Part shown: one piece after another, positions 4,771 to 47,217 of the stretch | Layout of the letters: the number at the start of each line of letters is the position of its first letter | Numbering within the stretch: position 1 is the first letter of the stretch | Source of the DNA: Tricharina praecox | Lineage: Eukaryota | Assembly: GCF_024521635.1 (NCBI RefSeq) | Contig: NW_026250410.1 | Coordinates: 1 to 64,000 of the forward strand | Length of the DNA: 64,000 nucleotides | Direction of reading: 5' to 3' | Notes under the pieces: generated by a model | Seen by the model: the letters and a program-made list of their open reading frames with translations, nothing else | What the model was told of the DNA's origin: nothing | The model's database searches: none | Made by a program: the position numbers and the translations under genes

Positions 4771-5826
4771 ACTGAGTACACTACTCTCACTAGTTTCCTT
4801 AAAATGGGGTTTATATATCATCGGGGATCAATTTGTTAACGCCCGGGTTTGGGTTCGGTTTTCTTTGGGGTTCAGAATGTCTTTGCTTCCTGTCGTCCGT
4901 CTGTCTATCCTGTGTTGTCTGTCCTGGATTTTCGTCTATCCTGTCTGTCTGTTAATCCTGTATGTTCGTCTGTCTGTATCTCTGTCTGTCTGTATCTCTG
5001 TCTGTTTGATCGTCTGATCGTCCTGTATTGTCTGTCTATCCTGTCTATCTGTCTGCCTGTATGTTCGTCTACCTGTTTGTTCGTCTATTATGTATTGTCT
5101 GTCTTGTCTGTATTTTTCTTTTCATGTGCTTATTTTATCTCTCGTGGTGGGGGAAACTTAGGGGGAGAGGGATGGGAGTTGGGATTGGGGGGATTGGGGA
5201 GAAGTGGATCAGTACCTCAGAAGTAGGTATTCGTGATATCAATATCGTTAACCACTATTGTTTGGTCCGATCCACTCGGGGTGCGTACATATGAGAAAGG
5301 AGGGAATGTACGAAGGAAAGAAGGGGGATAAGCACTGGGGTTCTGGGGTTCTGGGAAGTGAAGTTACGAGGGTAGGGCAGGGCAGCTGAGCAGTCCCCTA
5401 TGGTGCTGTGTTCGGTGCTTCATGTATAGACTCCCTTTGCTCTGCTCTAATAGGAGTAGGAGTAGATGAGTCGGTGACTTGCCGGAAATACAGGGGAGAA
5501 CTCCACCTATGCGCATGGATGGGAGCATGGATAGGGAGCATGGGGTGCGCAGGCAGGAAGTCAGCTGTGTGTACGTAGAGTAGCATCGGCTGTGGTAGCT
5601 CGACACGAGGGCACGTGACGCCATCCGCCTGACGGGGTGTCGAAGGAATGTACAATACGGATACTCTAATTAACCGGTAAGATTTGCACAAACGGACGTG
5701 GGTTTAAGGTTCAAGGTTCGACTTCAATTCCACGATAGGGCTAGGCCGCCACATCGCACATCACATACTACGGCTGGCCCCGGAAGCCGCCCACGATCCG
5801 CTGTCCCCGCGATCTCCTCCCACCAC

Positions 5827-6581
5827 CTAGACCCTCTTCTTCCCCGCGTCCAGTTCCTGCTGCTGCCTCATCTCGACCGCCGGCACCATGTTCCAGTACG
5901 CCTCGCACAGCAGCCAGCCGGGAATAACGACCCACAGCCCGTTAAAGAACGCCAGATAGAGCCACCTGCCGCCTTGATATTAGCCCTCCCTTCCCACAGC
6001 GCTCCACGGACGAGGAAAACCCACTTATACATCCAATTATGCGTCATGAGGTTATGATTCCCGGCGATCCACTCCGGCGCGAAAGTCATCCAACCACCAT
6101 AGATCTCGGCGGTAGCCAACACCGCGATCCAGAACCATCGTCTCCCCTCCCCGCGCCTCACCATGCCAGCGACCCACAGCGCCGCCGGGCCCGCAAGCAG
6201 CACGGTCACCAGCTCGATGCACACGATGCCCACGTCCGCCTCACCCCACCGCCGGTCCGCCTTCGCGTACTCATTCCACAGCTTGCCCAGCGGAGCGGTC
6301 GAGAACTTCGTGCCGTAGCTGATGGCCGCGTCGCCGTACAGTGTGGGTACGGCGCTGGAGCGCACCGTGGAGGAGGTCGTCAGCGAGTAGTATAGGAAAC
6401 TACCCTCGAGCACGAAGTGCGTCAAAGAGTCGAAGATGTGCCAGATGTAGATGACGCGGGTTTTGGTAGTCGAGGTCGACGGTAGTAGTGCGAGCGAGAG
6501 ACCGTATGCCCCCACGAGCAGGAGCACCGTCAGCAACAGCGAGAAGACCGTCGTGGCCGAGATGAGCGTGGGTTCGTCCAT
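5827..6581 (-). CDS. Emopamil-binding protein family (EXPERA domain; EBP/EBP-like, related to sterol delta8-delta7 isomerase)
   Basis: Exons 6581-6025 and 5965-5827 (intron GTGGGT...GCTAAT...CAG). Motifs WHIFDSLTHFVLEGSF, LWNEYAKADRRW, ELVT, AEIYGGWMTFAPEW and MYKWLYLAFFNGLWVVIP. Confidence 0.9.
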
Positions 6582-7517
6582 TGCGGTGATGGCCGTTGGG
6601 GGGATTGAGGTGTCGAGGGTAGTGAGGGGGAGGCGTGGTGATGCCGCGTTTTGTAGTGTAGATAGATACCTGGTCAGGGGTTGGTGCGATCGCCAGGGTC
6701 GACGTGTTCGGTTGGCGTGTGGCACGTCCCTGCACCTGCTATGCATCGAGCATCACTCGGTTATGCGAAGGATTCGCTCGATAACTTTTGGTGACAGAAC
6801 TAACGGGTGCGGGCAGGCGGATCCTGGATGTCACAGAGGAAGTCGCGACCAATGAGGTGTCGCAGTGGGAGCTGAGGAAGCGAGAAGAGAGGCAGGCAGA
6901 GAAAAGGCGAGATGTGGAGCACGGGGGCAGGGATGCCGCGAAGGTCCGCCTGACGAAAATCGGGTTGAGCAGTGGACGTGGGAGCGACATGTGTATAGAA
7001 ATGTTGCCATGATCTATCGAAGATAGCTCGGAAAGCAAGACGTGTGACGGACAGGTCAGACAGAACAAAGATAACATGTGACGACAGAAACAATCTAACG
7101 TTTACCGACCGCATCGGGTCTCATCCGGGACCTACCTCCATAACACATTATGTAGGTCCCACCAGGTCTCAACAAGGTCCCCACTCTCCAGCGCTCACTG
7201 ACGACGCCAAGCCGTCTCGTCCTCCGCACCCCTCAATTGGCACGAGGACAACGTTCGAGCAGGAAGCCTGTCACTTATACTTCGAATGAACACACATCGT
7301 TGCGTACACTGACGCTTTATTCTTTTCGGGTGGATCGCGGGCGATATGACTCAGCCAAGTCCCGGAAGTTTCGGCTTTTCAACGTCTACCACGCGTACTA
7401 TTTATGTTCGTCACTAGTCACGTGTGCCATGATCATCAAACAGGCCATCATTTCAATTGGTATCGTCGGGGCGTAAGCATATCATCTCATCGTACAGTAG
7501 TAGCCTCTCATCCTCTC

Positions 7518-9447
7518 TCATTTCCAGCCCCCAGGCACAACGGGATCCCAGCTCTCAGCCAAAAACATCGACTCCTGCCGGAACTCACTGTGCGAAATCG
7601 CATCCCACGGACGAGCATCAGCTTCACATTCCACCTCGTCCTCCACCTTGCCGGTCTCAAAGTACTTCCCTACCACGGCCGCCGAACAGGCACTGGGCGT
7701 GCTGATCGAGCAATGGCCCTCGCTGTGCTGGATCAGCAGTCCAGCGCCAGGGAAGCGCTTCCTCATAGCCTCCGCATTCCTCAGCGGCGTGACAGGGTCT
7801 AGCGAGGTGCTGGCGAAGAGCAAGGGGTAGGAAGTGTTCTTGCCCCATGTGTGGCCGCCCCATCCACTCTCGCCGTCTCGTCGCCACGGCACGAGGCCTT
7901 GGGCGGGGGTCTTGCGGCCAACACACGACATCTGAATCCGTGCCCAGTTCCCTCCGATGAGCGCACTCTGCCCCTGTAGCTCCTTGACATACCCACGGAA
8001 CTCGTCGAGAGTCGCGTTGTTCCCGCCGCCGTCCTGGCATAGAATCGCGGAGTCCGCCTCGGTCCCGGTATTCGGCAGTGGATCGGAGACACAATTGCAC
8101 TCGAAGTTGAGGTGGATAATCTCCACGACTTTGGAGGCGTCACCATTCTCGAGAGAAGCGAGAGCGTGTGCCGCAACGGGGAAGCGTATGAGGGGAGTGT
8201 ACAGCGACCAGAAGATGACGGTAAGGATGTCAGACTCCGTGACCCAATCCGGCGCGTGGTCGCCGTAGACTGGCGCTGGTTCTTGACGGACCTTCTCTCG
8301 TAGACGTGTCACTCGTGCTTCGACACCCGCAGCAGTCGGTTCGGAGAGTGCACAGGTGCCGTTGGCGAGGGAGCAGTAGTTGTAGAAACTTGCAATGACT
8401 TTGTCCGCGTCCTGGAGGTTCGTCCGCCAGCCACCGGCGTAGTAATCGTCAATGTCGACTACGCCATCGACCACGACTCGTTCGACGCGCGAAGGGAACA
8501 TGCTCGCGAATGTCTGCCCGAGGACGGTACCGTACGAGAATCCCCAGTAGCGGAGTCCCCGCTTGGAGGGGTCCTTGTCCACGGATTTCCACGACGCTTC
8601 GACGATGGATAACATATCACGAGCGACATTCGGGGTACCGGCGAAGTCTCCACCCGTCCCACCTTTATCGCAGACGCTCCCTAGCGACATCGACCTCGCA
8701 TATTCGATTGCCACTATCTGACCATTTCCACTTCCCATAACCCAGCCTCCAGCCCGCAGATACCACTGCATCCTCGCGGCATCGCTAGGAAAGCAGCTTG
8801 TGGCCGGGGTAGTGTTGTTCACCCCACGGGGATCAAATCCGATGACTGAATGCGTGTTCCCAACGATGCGCTGTAGCATCTTCCCCGCCTGAGTGACAAA
8901 TGCCACGCCGCTTCCGCCGGGCCCGCCGGGGTTGAGGAGTACAGGACCGGACCAGGCGTCCGAGGTCTCGGGAACGGACGCAGGAACCTTGGTGAGTGCT
9001 ATGGCGGCGCGGCGAGGGTCCGAGGAGTTGGTGTAGTCGAGTGGAACATCGAGACGCGCACAGGCGAGGCCGTCGAAGCATGGGTGCCAGATGAGGTCCG
9101 ACGTGGGTGTGATCTGTGTGCTATGTTAGCAAGCTCCAAGCTCCATCTCACACTGGTCGAGCGGAAGTGTGTACATCAGTCCATCTAAACTTCCCCGTAG
9201 CGGCGGTTACGGAGGGTGTGGTCGTCGAGATTTGTACCAGCCCCGTGTGGAATCCCCACAGCACATACATCGCAACCACACAAATGCCTGTAACAAGGAC
9301 CGCCTGCTTCATTGCGTACAGTAGCTGCAGCTTCCGAGCGCGACGTGCGGAGCGAGCGGAGCAACCGGAGCAAGTGCAGAAAGCGGCGGTAGGATTGGCC
9401 TTAGGTAGGAGCACCTTTTCATCGTCGCATATTGGTATCGACGACAT
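7518..9447 (-). CDS. Alpha/beta hydrolase with TAP-like (tripeptidyl aminopeptidase-type) C-terminus, N-terminal membrane anchor
   Basis: Exons 9447-9175 and 9113-7518 (intron GTACAC...GCTAAC...CAG). Motifs CARLDVPLDY, LLNPGGPGGSG, GFDPRGV, nucleophile GFSYGT, DPVTPLRNA and catalytic His in SEGHCS. Confidence 0.9.
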
Positions 9448-10750: not shown

Positions 10751-11667
10751 ATGGCTTCTTCAGATAGTAACAAGACGGTGGTCTCTGAGCTTTCCGGTAC
10801 CCTGCCTGCTTCATCTCAGGTTCACGAAGGCTCTGTAGTTGTCGGTCAGCAAGACATCCCACCTCCGGGCAGCAAGGTTACCCATCATGTGGCTACCGAG
10901 ACCAACCAAGCCAGCATCATCAGCGAGCCGGGTGATCTCACAGGTTCCATCCCAATCTCCATTACTGCTTCAATCCTAACTCACTCACTGATACAATAGG
11001 TGGAACTGAAAAAGACGGACTAACGGCATCAACGTCGTCCCATGGCTCGAAATTCCACAACGAAGGAAACCCTCGCTCGACTGTTCCCGCCAGAGGAGTT
11101 CGTCTTCATCCTACAATCATTACTGGTATCAGTGTTCCTCAAATTGCGTTTAACTTGACGATTGAATTACTAACACTGATTTTTCTCAGTCATCTCCGGA
11201 AGCGTATCGATACTCCGCCGCCCTGGATCCACTCCCGCAGCTGCTCCTATGTCCTACGGCTAGTCTCTTAATCACACACCTCTCTAGTTTCTAACTAACA
11301 TGCTTCAGCCGCTGCCGCCGCTCCGAACCCTACCGGACCTGATCCACGACGTCAGTCTCAAGGTGGTGCCACCCGCCCCACCACCCGGTGTCTCCCTGCG
11401 AACATCAATGGCCGTCCTCTCACCTCAGCATCTCTCCAGCGACTCCCAATTGCTAGAGGAGAGGCTCTTCGCCGCTGGTTGGCCCAGGATAAAGATGATG
11501 AAGTGACGGCCCCCCCAATTCTCGCTCTCCCGGCTCCCACTCTCCCAACTCCCCCAACTCCCACTCTCCCGGTGCCACCTGCCGCCAGTCGTGGACGTAA
11601 TGGCCGACGGGGCCGACGGTCTGGTGGAACCGGCGGACGCAACACGAACCGAGTACAGATGGAATAA
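10751..11667 (+). CDS. Possible multi-exon hypothetical Pro/Ser-rich protein
   Basis: ATG 10751. Intron 10944-10999 (GT...CTAAC...TAG) keeps the frame open; further CTAAC+CAG acceptors at ~11189 and ~11308. Later exon boundaries unresolved, no recognisable domain. Confidence 0.35.
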
Positions 11668-39300: not shown

Positions 39301-40013
39301 ACTCTCGCCCTCATCCTTCAGCCCTCCCCAACTCACGATCAAGTCCCCTGCTCGGAGGTGTTCCCCCAAGTACATAGTACCCCGTATCCCTGCAATCCGC
39401 GGGTTCATGCAGCGGGACGCCGGGAAGCAACGGGCGTCCGCGCCTCGCCAAGTTCCGCCGCTGTTGCCGTAGCGACCCCGCTTTCCCCGAAGGGCCCTCG
39501 CAAATCCATCACGATGCCACACCGTCGGTAGGTGTCAAATTCCAATCGGCCTTAGCACCCCCTCCCGCACCCCCTCCCGCCCCACCCAATTCTGCGCATC
39601 CATCCCGTGTGTATATCGTAGCTGCTCATGTATGGTACTATGATCTGTATGCGTGGTGCGTGGTGCGTGGTGGCGGGAAGGTCCGAGTAGAAAACCTGTC
39701 TGTCCCCACGTCGCCCCGTCAACTCCACGCTCGCACACTACTCCACCCCCGCGATTTTTTGTTTCCCGTCTGGCGAGAATATAGAGATCGACGCAATAAC
39801 CAACAACATCAACAATAACGACGATAACGATAACGACAACACCTCTCCACGCATCATCTTCCGCCCATTTATCGCAACAGAGTGATATATACCTCTTTGC
39901 CGGGTCCTTTGTCCGTCCTCCGTCCTCCTTGCCCCTCGGGCCGGTGCTGAAAGCTGACTGCCCATAGTAACTCGCAGGCGACCTTAACCACCACCAAAAA
40001 CAATAATAATAAT

Positions 40014-43000
40014 ATGATGGCCCGCTACCCGAACTACCCCAGCCTACCACCACTACCGCAAGCTTCCTCGTCGTCCTCGTCACCACGGCCCGCGCGGCGA
40101 TCCGCACACCCACAGCAATTGGCGAGTCGTCGCGCCGTCAATGCTTACTCGGACGTGGACGACGAGGAGGAGGACGAGGGGCGGGAGGAGGAGGAGGAGG
40201 AGGAGGACCGCGACTTCTCGCTTGTGACTATGATCGGCACGCGGGGTTCGAGGGGCGCGAGGGGCACAAGGGGTTCGAGGGGCTCGAGGGGCGGCGAGGG
40301 TAGCCGATTTGAGGATGTTGAGACTCCGTATGGCAATGGGAATGGCTACGGGAACGGGAATGGCTACGGCAAAAGCAATGGGAATGGCTATAGCAATGGC
40401 AACGGCAACGGCAATGGCGCACCCGGCCCGAGCGGCGGGCGCTCTCACCAGCACCGGTACCGACCGCCCCCGGGGCACTTCCACGACTCGTCGCCTTCGC
40501 GCCCCCCCTCCCCCTCCCACTCGGACCCCTCCCACTCCGACTCCGAATCCGCCAACTCCTTCCTATCCGCCGAGGAGTTTTTCCCCGCCGAAGAGCCGCG
40601 CCGTCGTCGTGCCGCGCCGGCGCCCCCCGACCTAAAGTCCACGCTGAGAGCATCACAGGCTATAAGATGGCAGCGCCAGCAGCAGCAGCAGCAGGAGATG
40701 CAGGAAGTGCCGAGCCCCGCAACACCATCGCAGATGCGCCGCTCCGCAGCGGCACTGTCACAGCAGCGGCCGCTGCGCGTGCCCCTGCCCCTGCCACCGC
40801 CGCCGTCATCCCCCGCGAATGCGAAGCGAACCCCGCAGCCGGCGAAGCGACGGCCGCCACCGCCACCGCAACCATCACCCCCACCACCACCACCACCACC
40901 ACAGGGCTCGAGGCTGTGGGAATCTGAGCGAGAGCGGGAGGAAATGCAACTCTACACCCCTAGGGCGCGGGAATCCGAGAGAGAGCGAGAGGAGATGCAA
41001 CTCTACACCCCTAGGGCGCACGAATCCTCGCGAGAGGAAATGCGTCTGTACACCCCGTCAGCGCGCTCACCGGAGCACGTCCGCTTCCGCCCTCGCTCGC
41101 CCACGCACCAGCCTCGGTCATCCACGCACCAACATCGCTCGTTCACGCACCCCTCACAGCGCACCCCCGCCACGAGCCGCCGCTCAGCCGAGCCCCCACG
41201 CAGCACCGACCGCGACCGCGACCGCAAATCCCAGAGCAGCCACCGGCGTCGCACGCCCGAGTCCTCGTCGGACACGCCGGACGCACCCGATACCCCCGCC
41301 ACGTCGCGCGAGAGCTCGTTCAATCGCTCGCTGAGCTACGACCACGAGCGACACCCGGTACAAGCGCATCCCGCGTCGTCGTCACGTGCTAAGAGTAAGA
41401 GGCCGGCGGAGGTGGATCAGAGTTGGCCTAATATGCCGGCAAGGAACACGTATGGTGGTGGTGGTGGCGGCGAGCGGAGTGGTAAAGGCACGGCGCGTAC
41501 CGCCAGGGGCACGCCGCGAAACGGCTTCTACACTCGGCGCGCGGGCGGTGATGTTGACGGATCACCGGGGCCGCGCTCCGCGTCGGGGTCCGATGGCGAT
41601 GACTGCGATGAGCCCGATGGTCACGTGCATCCAGGGTATCCGGGGTGGCCCTCGGGGCGGGCGGCGCGGAACTCGTATGGTGGTGGCGGCAGTGGTGGTG
41701 GCGGCGGTGGTAGTAGTGTCTCGCCAGATGACCGGGTTGCGGCGCGCGGGGTTGGCACGCCGCGAGATACCCACAATCGTCGCGCTCGGGCCGACAGGAA
41801 TGATAGACGCCCGGTTTCGCCGATGTCGCCAATATCACAGGTATCACCCGCCGAGTCGCTGTCAGAGCGGGACGAACACGAGCCTGGCCCCGCGCACTCG
41901 CACTGGCAGTCGCAGTCGCAGTCGAGGCAGGTGGATAAGGGATGGCCGGAAATACCTGCTGCCTCGGGACGGGCCGCGAGGAACTCATACGGCGGTGGTG
42001 GCGGTGGCTCACCGTGTGGCCGGGGCGCTGCATCGCGTGGCACAGGGGGGAAGCAAGACAGCTCGCACAACCGTCACGCGGCAGGCGGGGACAGGACGCC
42101 GGCATCACTCGTTGCGCCGGTATTCGACTGGGACGAGCACGGAGCTTCGCAGCCGGTGGGTTCGGTGGGTAAGGGATGGCCAGAAACCCCCGTGGCCTCC
42201 GGCGGCGCAAGGAATTCGTACAGCTATAGCGAGGCCTCGCCCAGCGAGCGAGGAGCTGCGGTGCGCGGCGGCAGGGGCAACGGCAAGCCGACAGACAACG
42301 CTTACAACCGCCGGGCTCGGACCGACGGACCGCCGGCACCACCCGACTGGGTCGACCCCGACCCTTCGCCGTCGCCTTCGCAGTCGCAGTCGCAGCCGCC
42401 GAATCCGGGATGGCCGGAAATGCCAGCCGCCTCCGGACGGGCCGCACGGAACACTTACGGCAGCGCCTCACCTGCGTCACGTGGCAACAAGGGGAAGTCG
42501 AAGCCGCAAGATACCACCTACAACCGCCGCTCCACCGTTGACAGGCCGCCGGCTCCGCTCGTGGTGCCGGTATCGGACTGGGACGAGCCCGCTCTCGCAC
42601 TGCCCGTCGATCCGGGATGGCCGGAGACGCCTGTAAAGAACACGTATAACTCAGTCCCAGCCGGTGACAGAGCCGCTCCGGCGCGCAATAACAGCAACAA
42701 CAGCAACAAGGGCAGGCCACGTGGAAACTCCTACACCCGCCGCGGCAGCCCCGAAAAACCTCCAGCCCCTACCCCCGCGTCGCTATCAGACTGGGACGAG
42801 CCCGGACCCGTGGCGGACCTGGGATGGCCAGAGACCCCGGTGGCGCACGGGCGGTCCGCAACGGCCGCGTTGTTGTCGGATTGGGATGAGCCCAGGCCGA
42901 CGGCGGAGCTGGGGTGGCCCGAGCCGCCGGCGGAAGTGGAGGCGGAGGATGAGGTTGCGCCGGATGAGGGGGTTGCGGCGCGCGGTGGCGGTGGCAGGGG

Positions 43001-46000
43001 GAAGGGGAACGGGAAGGGCAAAGACAGGGAGTCGCAGCCGGAGGATGATCCCGGCCATGTGTCCGATCGGGACCCGCTGCTGGAGCTGCAACGCGAGTTT
43101 GATTCACAAACCTCATCTTCGAGGGAGAGGGAGAGGGAGAAACACGAATGTCTGGTAGAGTCGTTCTCGGACGATGAAGAGGCGTTCAAGGAGACGCTTG
43201 CGGATAGTCCCGACAGCCTTGACAGTCCCGACAGCCCCGACGTCGTTGAGAAGAATGCCCGCAAGGAGGGGAAGCGCCAACGCCCAATTATGGTCAAAGT
43301 CGCTGCGGACGAAGATCGCCTTAAAGTTCCAGAAGACGGCGATGACGCAGCGAGTAGCTACAGCTGCACAGAAAGCCTCGAGAATGCGATGGCAGGGCTG
43401 ACGATGGAGACGGGCTATCCCAGCGTCGCCAGCCGCTCGCAGCCCCATCGCTCCTTCGACACGTTCCGGTTCGAGTTGCAGTACGAGGTGACGCGGGTAG
43501 CGCTCGCGCTCAACGTCTCCATGGAGCACCTGGACACCACACTCCCCGAGCTCATCGAGCCGTTCGCGCACGATCTGCACAACGCCAAGACTAAGGGCGA
43601 GCAATCGAAAGTGATGAAGGCGTTCGCGCAGAAGCTCACTGAGGACCCGAAGATGCCTGAGGCACTCGCCGCCACCGTTTGGCAGAAGCTGAAGGAGACG
43701 AAGTGCTGGTCGAATAATATCGAGCTGAGCGGAACGGTGTGGTTCGGCAAGGGCCCAGATGCCGACTTCGGACTCACACTCAATCCAATCTCGCTCCGGA
43801 AAAAGAGCGGGAGGTTTGCGGCTAGGTTCGGGTCCGATCGATTTCTCATGCTGAGGCTGCCCACGGTGCTGTCGAAGGAAAGAGGCGCGCAGGAGAAGCG
43901 CGAGAATCTCCTCGATTGGCTGGATAAGGAGCTGAAGCTCCTCAACAGGACCTGGAGGTGCTTCTACATCCGCGACGGCACCAAGACGAGCAAGGTTGCT
44001 GGCACCATGGTCAAGGAAGACTTCATCCTGGGATACTTCTTCGCCGAGAAAGGAGTTGGGATTGGGAACGTGTCGTATCGGATACGTGAGCTCCTGGGAC
44101 TCCTCGAGGACGAGAATACGTGTGCCGAGCAGCCAGTATGTCGCAAGGAGATGGTCCGCGACGCGTTGGTCGAGTGGCACATGCCGCTCTCGAAGCATCT
44201 CAAGACGTCCTTCTCCAAGGTCTGGTCGCGAATTAGTCTAGGTTCGGCCCACCCCTCCCCCCCCCCCGCCCCCTCCCCGGTCCGTTGCATCTACTAATAT
44301 CACTCAGGATTATCCGTATCGATGCCAACTGTCACTTTCCTTCCCCGCCAGATTTCACCACTCCCGGATATAATGTCGCCCACAGGCAAGGTCATGAACG
44401 ACGGGTGCGCGGTGTGCTCGCCGAAGGTGATGCGAATAATCCGCGAGCGGCTGAACCTGACAGAGACGCCCACGGCGGTGCAGGGGCGTCTGGGCGGTGC
44501 CAAGGGCGTGTGGTTCGTCAATCCCGATGACGACGACTACTCAGAGGAGATATCGATCACGTATACCCCCTCGCAGCTCAAGTACCAGTTCCACGAGCAG
44601 GATGAGGACGACGACAAATGCGACTGGGCGCGCATGACGTTGTTTGTGCTCAGTTACTCGAAGGAGCCCTCGCCAGCCGCCCTCAATATCCAGCTGGTGC
44701 CGATCCTGAGCAGACAGGGCGTGCCATTCGAGGCGTTCAAGGAGCTCATAGAACAGCACCTGGACGAGGACCTGGAGCAGCTGCTGAATGCGGCGTCGAA
44801 CCGCGCGAGCTTGCGGCACTGGCTCGGCAGTCACGGCCTCGAGGAGCGGTACAAGAACTGGGAGATTCCGGTGTTCGATAGTGGCGCGCCGCTCAGCAAC
44901 GAGGAGCAGATCGCGATGCTATTGGATGCTGGCTTCGATCCTATTGGCTGTGGATTCCTCATGCAGAAGCTGAATGCCATCGTCAGTCAGCAGTGCGATA
45001 AACTCCTGGAGAAGCTCCATATAAGAGTCCCCTGCTCCGCCACGGTGTATTGTATTGCTGATCCGACGGGTACCTTGGCGGAGGGTGAGGTGTCGCTGCA
45101 GTTCTCAAAGGGCTTTGTGGATCCGATCACCTTGACGCGGCGGGAGTGCATAGAGGGTGATCTGTTGGTGGCCAGAAACCCGGCTCATCTGCCAACGGAT
45201 ATACGGAAGGTGTGTCTCACAATCTATTATCTCACTCATTCTTTCCCATGACACTTGCTAACGTGCTCTAAAGGTCAAAGCAGTTCTGCCGATGCATTCT
45301 GGCTTGCGACGGTTGAAGGATGTCATAATCTTCTCCACCAAAGGCAACACCCCGCTGGCCGACATGCTCTCGGGCGGCGACTACGACGGCGACAAGCCGT
45401 GGATCTGCTGGGATCGGCGGCTTGTAGCTCCATTCCAGAACAACCGGTCGTTTGCGGCATTCCAGCAATGGAAGCAAGACAAGTACTTCGAGCCGTGCGA
45501 TCCCGAGAAGCGGTTTCTTTACGACCTGCACCCTACCTACCCCTCGCCCCACTTCTACAAGCAGTTCTTCCGGCGCGGCTTTGCCTCCGCGATACAGGAG
45601 GAGCTGCTGGGACTGTGCACGACCGCGCTCAGTCGCTACACATACTTCGAGAAGCCCGGCGAGCTCGACAAGCAGCAGATCCACCTCGCCAAGCTGTGCA
45701 GCGTCCTGGTCGACGCGCCGAAGCAGGGCATCCGCCCCACCAAGGAGACGGTGGACTCGATCTACGCGCTGCTCAACAGCTTCAAGGGCAAGCCGGCGTA
45801 CAAGGACCTCAGCAACGAGGAGGGCAGCCACCCATCAGGCGACGCGGACGAGTGGTACATCCTCGACCGCCTGATCCTGGACGTGGGCCAGCGCAAAGTC
45901 GCGGAGAAGAAGCAGCAGTTCATGGACCTGCAGGAGCGGCAGACGAAGTGGCCGGACGCGCACCTCTCCAAACTGTGGAACGACGTCAACAACGAGTGCC

Positions 46001-46440
46001 ACGCGACAAGCAACAAGTCCCTGCGCCGCCTCCTCACCCGCCTGGACGAGGACCTGCACAACGTCTCGCGCGCGTGGGAGCGCGCTATGCGCACCAACCG
46101 AGCCGGGAACTTCCGCGCCGCGGCGGAGCCCGTCTACGCGCTGTTCAAGTCGATCCGTCCCGCGCCAGACGAGGAGATCAACGCCGACCGCCGCATTAAG
46201 GAGTGGTACGATAATGGCGAGCATCCCTGCTCCGAGTGGCGCCTGCTGAAGGCGTCGAAGCTGTTTGTTATCTCGTGCACCTCGAGGCTCGCTTGGTGGA
46301 TGGCCATGCCGGAGCTGTGCTACCTCAAGGCGAGGGAGTCGACGAGGGAGCGCGGTGGTCAGGCGCCGAGGATCGTGTGCGATGATATGTACCTCATCTT
46401 GAAGCCTGTGGCCCCCGCGCCCAGGGATGAGGACGATTGA
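40014..46440 (+). CDS. qde-1: Eukaryotic RNA-dependent RNA polymerase, QDE-1-like (RNAi/quelling), ~2098 aa with ~1100-aa disordered repeat-rich N-terminal extension
   Basis: Exons 40014-44241, 44308-45209 and 45274-46440; introns GTTCGG..ACTAAT..CAG and GTGTGT..GCTAAC..AAG restore SRISLG|LS and DIRK|VKAV. Motifs RFGSDRF, MNDGC, QGRLGGAKGVW, IADPTGTL, VARNPAHLPTDI, VIIFSTKG and catalytic LSGGDYDGDKPWICWD. The DYDGD context matches QDE-1; orthology is not formally tested. Confidence 0.93.
41410..42935 (+). repeat. Intragenic degenerate repeats encoding 7 x GWP plus 1 x SWP modules
   Basis: Trp codons at ~41424, 41646, 41943, 42177, 42411, 42618, 42825 and 42915; units such as SDWDEP...PGWPETP and KGWPEIPAASGRAARNSYG. 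Confidence 0.9.
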
Positions 46441-47217
46441 GAGACCATAATTGGTGTCTTCTTTCCCTGCTGTGGGTGATTGGGTTTCCAGCAGTAACGT
46501 GCTTTCCAAGCGAATGCGGGGTTCCTCTTTGATTTGTGTGTGTGTGTGTGTGTGTGTGTGTCTGAGAGGCTACCTATGGTATCCTTCCGGCTGGATGTTT
46601 CTTTTTGGGCGACTTCCGGTTTTGCTTATGGCTGAGTGTTTGTTTTGGGAGGTATCTGTTGCACTCACTTAGCTTTATATCCTGGTTGTTTGGAAGATAT
46701 CGATTGCACGTTGCATTTATACCCTGTTTGTTTTGGCGTGGATTTGAGATACCACTTGTGTTATACGATTAATTGCTATCCGGCGGAGGTGAATAAATGG
46801 TTGTGAAAATTTGATTGGCTGTTTCCTCCGGGGGCGATCGAGTTGATCAAGTAATACGTTACACAGCCGCCAGTGGAGCATGTAAATGCTTACAAGAGCC
46901 ATCGCGGATCCAAGTTCTGGGTGGGTGTGGACAGTGGACAGTGGATACTTCGAAGTTCGAGCAAAGACAAGTTTTGTGAGCTCGAGCTCCCTGACAACCC
47001 CACTTGCAATCCGGACTGACTAGATGCACGCTTTCGCACCTCGGTCCAGTACCAGTACGGCCCCCTCCCACGCTACCGGCGGGCCGGCGCACCATCGAAG
47101 ATTGAATCAGGAAACCTCACTCGGTAATCGAGTGAGGTTTCATGCCCGCTCTCATGCCCGCGGGCCCGCACCTCTCCAAGGTGAGATGGAGAGGGATGGA
47201 AGAAGGTTGAGAGGAAG

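Follow-up and report, generated by a model that had tools for sequence, protein, structure and literature searches.

A Tryptophan-Motif Array in the N-Terminal Extension of a QDE-1-Type RNA Polymerase from Tricharina praecox: A Candidate Argonaute Platform

The 64,000 nucleotides analyzed here (positions 1 to 64,000 of contig NW_026250410.1 of Tricharina praecox, called the window below) encode, on the plus strand, a QDE-1-type RNA-dependent RNA polymerase (RdRP) whose long N-terminal extension contains an array of eight repeat units centered on tryptophan. Array and polymerase come from one transcript. The extension is predicted to be intrinsically disordered, the array is an old tandem amplification whose motifs look constrained at the sequence level, and a sister lineage has undergone a parallel expansion of glycine–tryptophan (GW) motifs. 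In the reading that we favor, to which we assign a probability of about 0.35, the array is a multivalent platform of short linear motifs that the polymerase carries in cis. Its tryptophan motifs would dock into the tryptophan pockets of the fungus's Argonaute, and a guide-loaded Argonaute on a target RNA would recruit the polymerase to the same RNA in cis, or recruitment would run the other way. We infer both the partner, Argonaute, and the consequence, a coupling of target recognition to the synthesis of double-stranded RNA (dsRNA).

Several features lead us to favor this reading. Seven GW dipeptides lie in a predicted disordered and locally acidic context, the motifs have been retained despite near-saturated synonymous divergence, and the sister lineage has an acidic GWG array of its own. 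A bolder idea, which we hold to be doubtful although worth stating, is that a lineage of cup-fungus relatives built an Argonaute-recruiting GW platform into its RdRP twice, once as the eight GWPE.P/DWDEP units described here and once as the three or four DDDGWG.P units of the sister lineage, whose copy number still varies. If so, the protein would be a natural "Rosetta-stone" fusion, and coupling of Argonaute to dsRNA synthesis through tryptophan pockets would operate in filamentous fungi as well. The recruitment of cellular RdRPs to Argonaute-marked RNAs is known only in part, with next to nothing established in filamentous fungi; a polymerase with its own multivalent tryptophan platform would be a simple test case for the generality of Argonaute-pocket coupling to RdRPs. 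Even with a different partner, the array would be an unusually clear example, within a silencing enzyme, of a short-motif repeat that is both old and constrained.

One transcript joins extension and polymerase

The polymerase is assigned to the QDE-1 type by domain and structure matches. The Pfam profile PF05183 matches the second and third coding exons at 219.8 bits (E = 9.6e-65) and 111.6 bits (E = 5.5e-32) against a cut-off of 23.8, and the two matches together span profile positions 138–562 of 582. In the Protein Data Bank (PDB), the matches at E values up to 0.001 are QDE-1 chains only (5fsw, 1e-42; 2j7n, 3.2e-39; 7y7p, 3.3e-39), and the slab region also matches a QDE-1 structure (E = 6.8e-4). 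Because residue 1211 aligns with position 99 of the QDE-1 chain 5fsw_A, the folded core is likely to begin near residue 1113, which makes the N-terminal extension about 1110 amino acids long. The third coding exon contains the string DYDGD, which we take to be the catalytic aspartate loop of cellular RdRPs; it recurs in those of 15 fetched relatives that reach this region, among them P0003, P0004, P0006, and P0007 from one set of six and all nine of a second set. The closest named proteins belong to the Pezizales, with identities to the second coding exon of 65% (Trichophaea), 62% (Pyronema), and 57% (Wilcoxina).

The extension and the start of the core occupy a plus-strand open reading frame (ORF) that runs without interruption over 40014–44297 (1427 amino acids). 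Joining the three coding exons (Table 1) gives a coding sequence (CDS) of 6297 nt and a protein of 2098 amino acids. Because a further intron sits in the 5' untranslated region (UTR), the exon that the original prediction called the first is the second of the transcript. The mature 5' UTR is free of ATG over its final 256 nt.

The transcript structure was read from contigs of two public sequencing runs, X1 and X2, which come from two studies and whose kind is unrecorded. A single X1 contig of 6840 nt spans 39800–46700 and lacks exactly three GT..AG segments (39911–39967, 44240–44305, and 45207–45270), and X2, the run of the other study, has the identical three joints. Because it is exactly these three segments that are missing, we read the contigs of both runs as derived from mRNA; an origin from DNA would mean an intron-less copy. 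The X1 contig is collinear with the window over 40218–44239, its record coordinates continue across a masked repeat at 40147–40217, and the X1 and X2 contigs have no canonical GT..AG joint within 40218–44239, so the array is unspliced. The whole gene is therefore one transcript, and the contigs leave room for additional, shorter isoforms. In the CDS, X1 differs from the window at five positions (40079, 42155, 45008, 46293, and 46331), four of the five differences being synonymous, and for X2 no CDS difference is listed. Both X1 differences inside the extension are synonymous, but two sites are too few to weigh.

The reading frame of the extension is fixed by short anchors that are common to relatives, collinear with them, and in the frame of the core: 'MARYP.LP.LP', 'DRDFS', 'SAEE[FY]F', 'SRE[NS]SF', 'ELQREF', and 'FSDDEEAF'. 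Because anchors on both sides of the array share the frame of the core, and because the mRNA is collinear between them, translation must carry the array within the polymerase chain. The architecture originally proposed, tryptophan repeats and an RdRP of QDE-1 type in one polypeptide encoded by a single mRNA over 40014–46440, is thus upheld in each of its parts: by the anchors in the core frame, by the PF05183 matches and the QDE-1 structures as the best solved matches, and by an X1 contig that covers the gene with the same three joints in X2. Transcripts that start or splice downstream of about 43000, which had been named as grounds for abandoning the proposal, are unseen in the contigs, with shorter isoforms still possible.

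Some other observations concern the same locus. There are long ORFs on the minus strand and in the remaining frames, which were considered and set aside as a by-product of about 69% G+C; the anchors lie in the plus-strand frame, and the transcript is collinear with it. One X2 contig omits 216 nt (72 codons, in frame) at 41475–41692, between two TGG-rich runs, with ends GG..CA and a 22-nt side, whereas a second X2 contig spans 41475–41692 intact; the skip is probably an assembly artefact, the alternative being a length variant of the array. A C-rich tract at 44248–44278, inside the intron at 44240–44305, draws very many 31-mer contigs from soil metatranscriptomes, which represent low-complexity matching and are no evidence of expression. 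The metatranscriptome runs X4 and X5 offer only such 31-mers on 44248–44278 and a few pieces of 150 nt, and we base no inference on them.

Table 1. Features of the RdRP gene in the window
Feature	Position	Strand	Remarks
Intron in 5' UTR	39911..39967	+	57 nt, GT..AG; one X1 contig and one X2 contig have joint 39910>39968
First coding exon	40014..44239	+	residues 1-1408; whole N-terminal extension and start of RdRP core
Conserved N-terminus with low-complexity modules	40014..41420	+	residues 1-469; anchors shared with P0001-P0003
Tryptophan-module array	41421..42938	+	residues 470-975
Predicted helix with conserved 'ELQREF'	43074..43157	+	residues 1021-1048; AlphaFold2; kept in P0001-P0003
Start of RdRP core, slab-domain region	43350..44239	+	from about residue 1113; 65% identity to P0001 over 1100-1427
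Intron	44240..44305	+	66 nt, GT..AG; joint in X1 and X2; junction peptide agrees with relatives
Second coding exon, RdRP domain	44306..45206	+	PF05183 E 9.6e-65; QDE-1 structures E 1e-42
Intron	45207..45270	+	64 nt, GT..AG; joint in X1 and X2
Third coding exon, RdRP domain and C-terminus, including stop codon	45271..46440	+	PF05183 E 5.5e-32; frame check
DYDGD loop	45379..45393	+	read in sequence

Anatomy and age of the array

The array consists of six long units of 69–99 amino acids, starting at residues 470, 544, 643, 721, 799, and 868 (nucleotides 41421, 41643, 41940, 42174, 42408, and 42615), and two short units of 30 amino acids, starting at residues 937 and 967 (nucleotides 42822 and 42912). 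Its 506 residues include 14 tryptophans (2.8%) and are otherwise rich in G (14.6%), P (13.4%), S (11.5%), A (10.7%), and R (9.5%). Eight tryptophans sit in [G/S]WP (Trp-471, 545, 644, 722, 800, 869, 938, and 968), five in DW[D/V][E/D] (Trp-706, 779, 856, 927, and 957), and one in HW (Trp-631). The first class corresponds to seven GW and one SW dipeptide, each followed by P and then E, N, or S, and the context G-W-P-E is found in seven of the eight units. Along a long unit, the elements follow one order: G-W-P-(E)-x-P, A-R-N-[ST]-Y, a G/S run, R and then G-x-P, [YH]-[NT]-R-R, D..P-(A)-P, and finally D-W-D-(E). The last slot is occupied by Cys in unit 1 (DCDEP) and by Arg in unit 2, and five of the eight units end in the acidic DW[D/V][E/D], at 16, 21, 13, 11, and 11 residues from the next GWP. 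Neither eight [GS]WP nor five DW[DV][ED] were reached in any of 20,000 composition-preserving shuffles of the region; this excess of motifs reflects the shared ancestry of the repeats, which are not independent events.

The original prediction had described eight tryptophan-centered modules in an uninterrupted exon, and every module string that it quoted is present. Its coordinates, 41410–42935, bracket the array, which we refine to the limits given in Table 1. The statement that the tryptophans persist while the linkers diverge stands in its first half only: 17 columns are conserved in at least five of the six long units, and they comprise N, Y, R, P, D, A, and G as well as W, so that Tyr, Asn, Arg, Pro, and Asp are kept no less well than Trp. 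Similarly, the proposed spacing of about 12–13 residues between the DW and GW tryptophans describes three of the five pairs, and the other two are separated by 16 and 21.

The conserved columns bring in a first alternative, namely that the extension is a low-complexity domain of the sticker-and-spacer kind, in which self-association, RNA binding, or condensates would concentrate the polymerase without any direct contact between tryptophan and an Argonaute pocket. The layout is suggestive. Conserved W, Y, and R columns are split by G/S/P-rich linkers, so that regularly placed W/Y and Arg stickers would alternate with G/S/P-rich spacers, and basic blocks (GRAARN, NRR) alternate with acidic ones (DWDEP). 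The Tyr, Arg, and Asn columns are conserved as well as Trp, each ARN[ST]Y is followed by a G/S run, more N/G/Y and RG repeats occur elsewhere in the extension, the region is predicted to be fully disordered, and relatives have amplified other low-complexity units in the same tail, one of them wholly without Trp. Such a domain would leave unexplained, however, both the G-W-P-E context in seven of eight units and the acidic GWG array that arose independently in the sister lineage, and we consider it rather unlikely as the whole explanation. It and the Argonaute platform are mutually compatible.

The prediction of disorder comes from AlphaFold2, in which residues 440–1049 have a mean predicted local distance difference test score of 39.2, with 562 of 610 residues below 50 and secondary structure absent across residues 440–1020; the run was made in single-sequence mode, in which a call of disorder is weak by itself. 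From the array to the core, the sole predicted structured element is the helix of residues 1021–1048, just 3' of which lies the conserved 'FSDDEEAF' at residues 1050–1057. Upstream of the array, residues 1–469 include the anchor 'SRESSFNRSLS' and further lineage-specific modules of low complexity: RG repeats (40236–40300), an N/G/Y run (40330–40418), poly-Pro, three copies of ESEREREEMQLYTPRA, encoded by a repeat of 51-nt period (2.3 copies) at 40920–41036, and a repeat of 21-nt period at 41093–41151.

The array is recognizable as a repeat at the protein level only. Tandem Repeats Finder reports no long-period DNA repeat across it; the only array-derived period is one of 27 nt at 42882–42934, the other rows being simple repeats of 3–15 nt. 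Units are 52–67% identical in nucleotides, and in columns with identical residues different codons are used in 210 of 390 pairs, a fraction of 0.54 compared with 0.64 expected at saturation. The GWP tryptophan is nevertheless retained in all eight units, where the following Pro is encoded by CCT, CCC, CCG, and CCA. We conclude from the sequence that a segment of about 70 amino acids was amplified in tandem long ago to give the array. Because the motifs have been retained while synonymous sites approach saturation, an argument can be made for purifying selection, and the motifs look constrained.

A second alternative is that low-complexity sequence expanded neutrally in this lineage, within a tolerant disordered tail, and that the array has no specific function. 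No relative emerged from a phmmer search of 1.84 billion representatives with residues 470–975 (E up to 0.001), nor was a usable match to the array obtained from the ESM Atlas. Three related lineages have three different expansions in this tail, copy number differs between two loci of the sister lineage (L001 and L002, below), and there are orthologues with short tails and no GW. These facts favor a neutral expansion. Motif columns that were kept while synonymous sites came near saturation speak against it; the two synonymous X1 differences in the extension point the same way, at two sites only. On balance we regard a purely neutral origin as unlikely.

Relatives of the extension and their expansions

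GW and WG dipeptides were counted in the relatives whose core start matched a single mapping pattern, which left 43 other fetched proteins outside the count. The extension in the window has seven, with 16 tryptophans in 1150 residues, and that of P0001 has 11, with 20 in 1256. None is found in P0002 (three Trp in 543 residues), P0003 (one in 519), Pyronema P0016 (one in 408), Wilcoxina P0017 (two in 198), or Ascodesmis P0020 (none in 431). Three further loci, L001–L003, are metagenome loci that were recovered in a scan with alignment A1; a scan with P0001 confirmed none.

The sister lineage comprises P0001, which is 65% identical over residues 1100–1427, and the loci L001 and L002, which carry the P0001 gene with the same three-exon layout. 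After a 'SRENSFNR' anchor, this lineage has one di-tryptophan module, 'SDWGP...DDDWP..P', with a spacing of 13 residues. Just before the core it has an acidic 'DDDGWG[EKN]P' array, of three units plus AWG in L001 and four units plus AWG in L002, at approximately 11330–11470 and 5130–5320, respectively (protein residues of about 1100–1160). Its GWG[EKN]P may resemble the canonical GWG type of GW182/TNRC6. L001 and L002 otherwise differ by one indel of two amino acids, four non-synonymous codons, and one synonymous codon, and the GWG array or its immediate surroundings account for three of the four non-synonymous differences. No flanking genes common to L001/L002 and the window were found at E below 1e-8. 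In L003 (2–1100) a unit of about 110 amino acids is present three times in the N-terminal tail; it contains 'SRENSFDRG' and 'NEPGPSRP' and has no GW. The tail is thus prone to lineage-specific repeat expansion, and, judged by sequence, GW is enriched in two of the three lineages with large expansions. The original prediction had asked whether the tryptophans are conserved in orthologues, and the answer is divided: the sister lineage has its di-tryptophan module and 11 GW/WG, and the five distant orthologues and L003 have none.

The origin of the unit may lie in a single-copy segment of the ancestral tail. In alignment, the window unit places GWPE.P..SG over 'P.TP.TSG', [ED]N.[FY]NR over 'ENSFNR', and SDWDEP-GP over 'SDWGP-SP', 'FELHGP-GP', or 'NRNEP-GP'. 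A profile of the six long units was used to scan 14 N-terminal segments (13 taken from 12 relatives, together with window residues 1–469 and 976–1150), and its best scores were 5.2 bits (P0003, residues 242–289) and 3.2 bits (P0001, residues 631–660), both overlapping the 'SRE.SF' anchor. With 200 shuffles each, the 95th percentiles were 2.4–2.8 bits and the maxima 6.0–9.1 bits, so that these scores are marginal. We offer descent of the repeat unit from the 'SRE.SF' anchor segment as a suggestion only; if it is right, the tryptophan slots of the window correspond to L/F/Y in P0002 and P0003.

This suggestion bears on a third alternative. Motifs that combine tryptophan with acidic residues bind several unrelated domains, and the Trp-acidic and GWP motifs here could bind a partner other than Argonaute, either a factor of RNA interference or of DNA repair, or the polymerase's own core, with the extension acting as an autoinhibitory tail. 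The kinesin-light-chain type, LIR, and the acidic activation-domain type were considered as candidate classes for such tryptophan motifs. In the tail, conservation extends further for the 'SRE[NS]SF.R' anchor and 'EPGPS[KR]P' than for the tryptophan motifs, and the tryptophan slots align to L/F/Y in P0002 and P0003. In addition, Neurospora QDE-1 shows lower activity in vitro at full length than when truncated N-terminally, an unexplained difference (PMC9508822). However, the match between the repeat unit and the ancestral anchor is weak, the two best profile scores falling below the shuffle maxima. We judge a different partner to be quite improbable, more so than either of the alternatives above.

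The array as a candidate Argonaute hook

Returning to the Argonaute platform, we scored the extension with the domain score of Karlowski (2010), re-implemented from Table 1 and the text of that paper (dec 8.6; threshold 6.99 half-bits), whose matrix was trained on plant proteins and whose grades are weak below 25, medium from 25 to 150, and strong above 150 half-bits (PMC2910046). Three domains are obtained in the window protein, 544–568 (29.1 half-bits), 631–684 (24.5), and 710–829 (20.8), for a total of 74.4. Of 2000 shuffles of residues 1–1100, 1% attained this total and 2.6% the score of the largest domain. P0001 has five domains, scoring 10–15.6. The score is driven largely by G/S runs. 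By composition, and with a plant-trained matrix, the array is thus a weak-to-medium candidate hook.

A number of points weigh against an Argonaute platform. First, the domain scores straddle the weak/medium border of 25, compared with composition scores of 90–107 for TNRC6 (PMC2910046); tryptophan makes up 2.8% of the array, compared with 6.3% of the plant training domains, and Pro (13.4%), Arg (9.5%), and Tyr are disfavored by the matrix. Second, classic GW platforms conserve only tryptophan and composition, with linkers otherwise free (PMC2910046), and the array departs from this pattern: in the long units, columns of Tyr, Asn, Arg, Pro, Asp, and Gly persist as well as those of Trp. Third, GW/WG dipeptides number zero in all five mappable distant orthologues (P0002, P0003, Pyronema, Wilcoxina, and Ascodesmis) and in L003, and a large separate repeat of P0001 keeps the tryptophan of its 'KGW' in only two of four units. 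Finally, a structural survey of 2025 describes the tryptophan-pocket residues of the fungal AGO clade as "remarkably variable," with pocket 3 alone distinctly conserved (PMC12477606). Because the fungal pockets vary in this way, the original idea that paired tryptophans could span tandem pockets is weakened as well.

The 20 other long ORFs of the 64-kb window include no Argonaute by Pfam. Two of these ORFs have a Pfam family and the other 18 have none: 5871–6752 (minus strand) matches EXPERA/EBP (PF05241, E = 3e-18), and 7521–9125 (minus strand), which matches PF08386 and PF00561, is an alpha/beta hydrolase whose C-terminus is TAP-like.

In the literature that we searched, mostly by listing, we found no description of an RdRP with a built-in GW array; the comparisons below are with systems that share individual elements. 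The first is Neurospora crassa QDE-1 itself (PDB 2j7n and 7y7p), which is alike in its PF05183 domain, in the PDB matches, and in its DYDGD loop. It is 1402 amino acids long, and its N-terminal 376 amino acids are dispensable in vitro (PMC9508822), in agreement with the much shorter N-terminus and the length of about 1400 amino acids on which the original prediction had relied. The protein described here has 2098 amino acids and an extension of about 1110 with a tryptophan array, so that the extension is about three times longer than in Neurospora.

Plant NRPE1 and SPT5L resemble the present protein in carrying repeated GW in a disordered extension of a polymerase or elongation factor, and in fast evolution by repeat expansion (PMC2910046). 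They score above 150 half-bits with about 6% Trp, whereas the array here reaches 21–29 per domain with 2.8% Trp and has additional Tyr, Arg, and Asn motifs. GW182/TNRC6 also has multivalent tryptophan motifs in a disordered region; unlike the protein here, it is a metazoan effector scaffold with no fusion to an enzyme, and it scores in the range given above. In fungi, a GW protein, an Argonaute, and an RdRP act together in Schizosaccharomyces pombe, where Tas3 belongs to RITS and works with RDRC, and in Cryptococcus, for which published tables name the "GW/WG protein" Gwc1 and the "GW182-like" Gwo1 alongside Rdp1 and Ago1 (PMC4778953 and PMC7763443). In each of these, however, the GW protein is a separate polypeptide.

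The closest known mechanism, by analogy, is that of SGS3, AGO1, and RDR6 in Arabidopsis. There, GW/WG motifs in a disordered region of SGS3, a conserved acidic patch, and the tryptophan pockets of AGO1 are all required for full amplification of RDR6-dependent small interfering RNAs; in the same 2025 preprint RDR6 was screened for tryptophan in disordered regions but dropped, the candidates kept being SGS3, HESO1, and NTP8 (10.1101/2025.10.18.683247). The likeness lies in disordered GW/WG tryptophans beside an acidic patch that link Argonaute pockets to an RdRP, with a multivalency that has been proposed to be cooperative. The difference is that in Arabidopsis the motifs are on a separate cofactor, whereas here they are on the polymerase, and Argonaute binding is putative. 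If it occurs, the array would do in cis for the Tricharina polymerase a job that parallels the one SGS3 does for RDR6 in trans.

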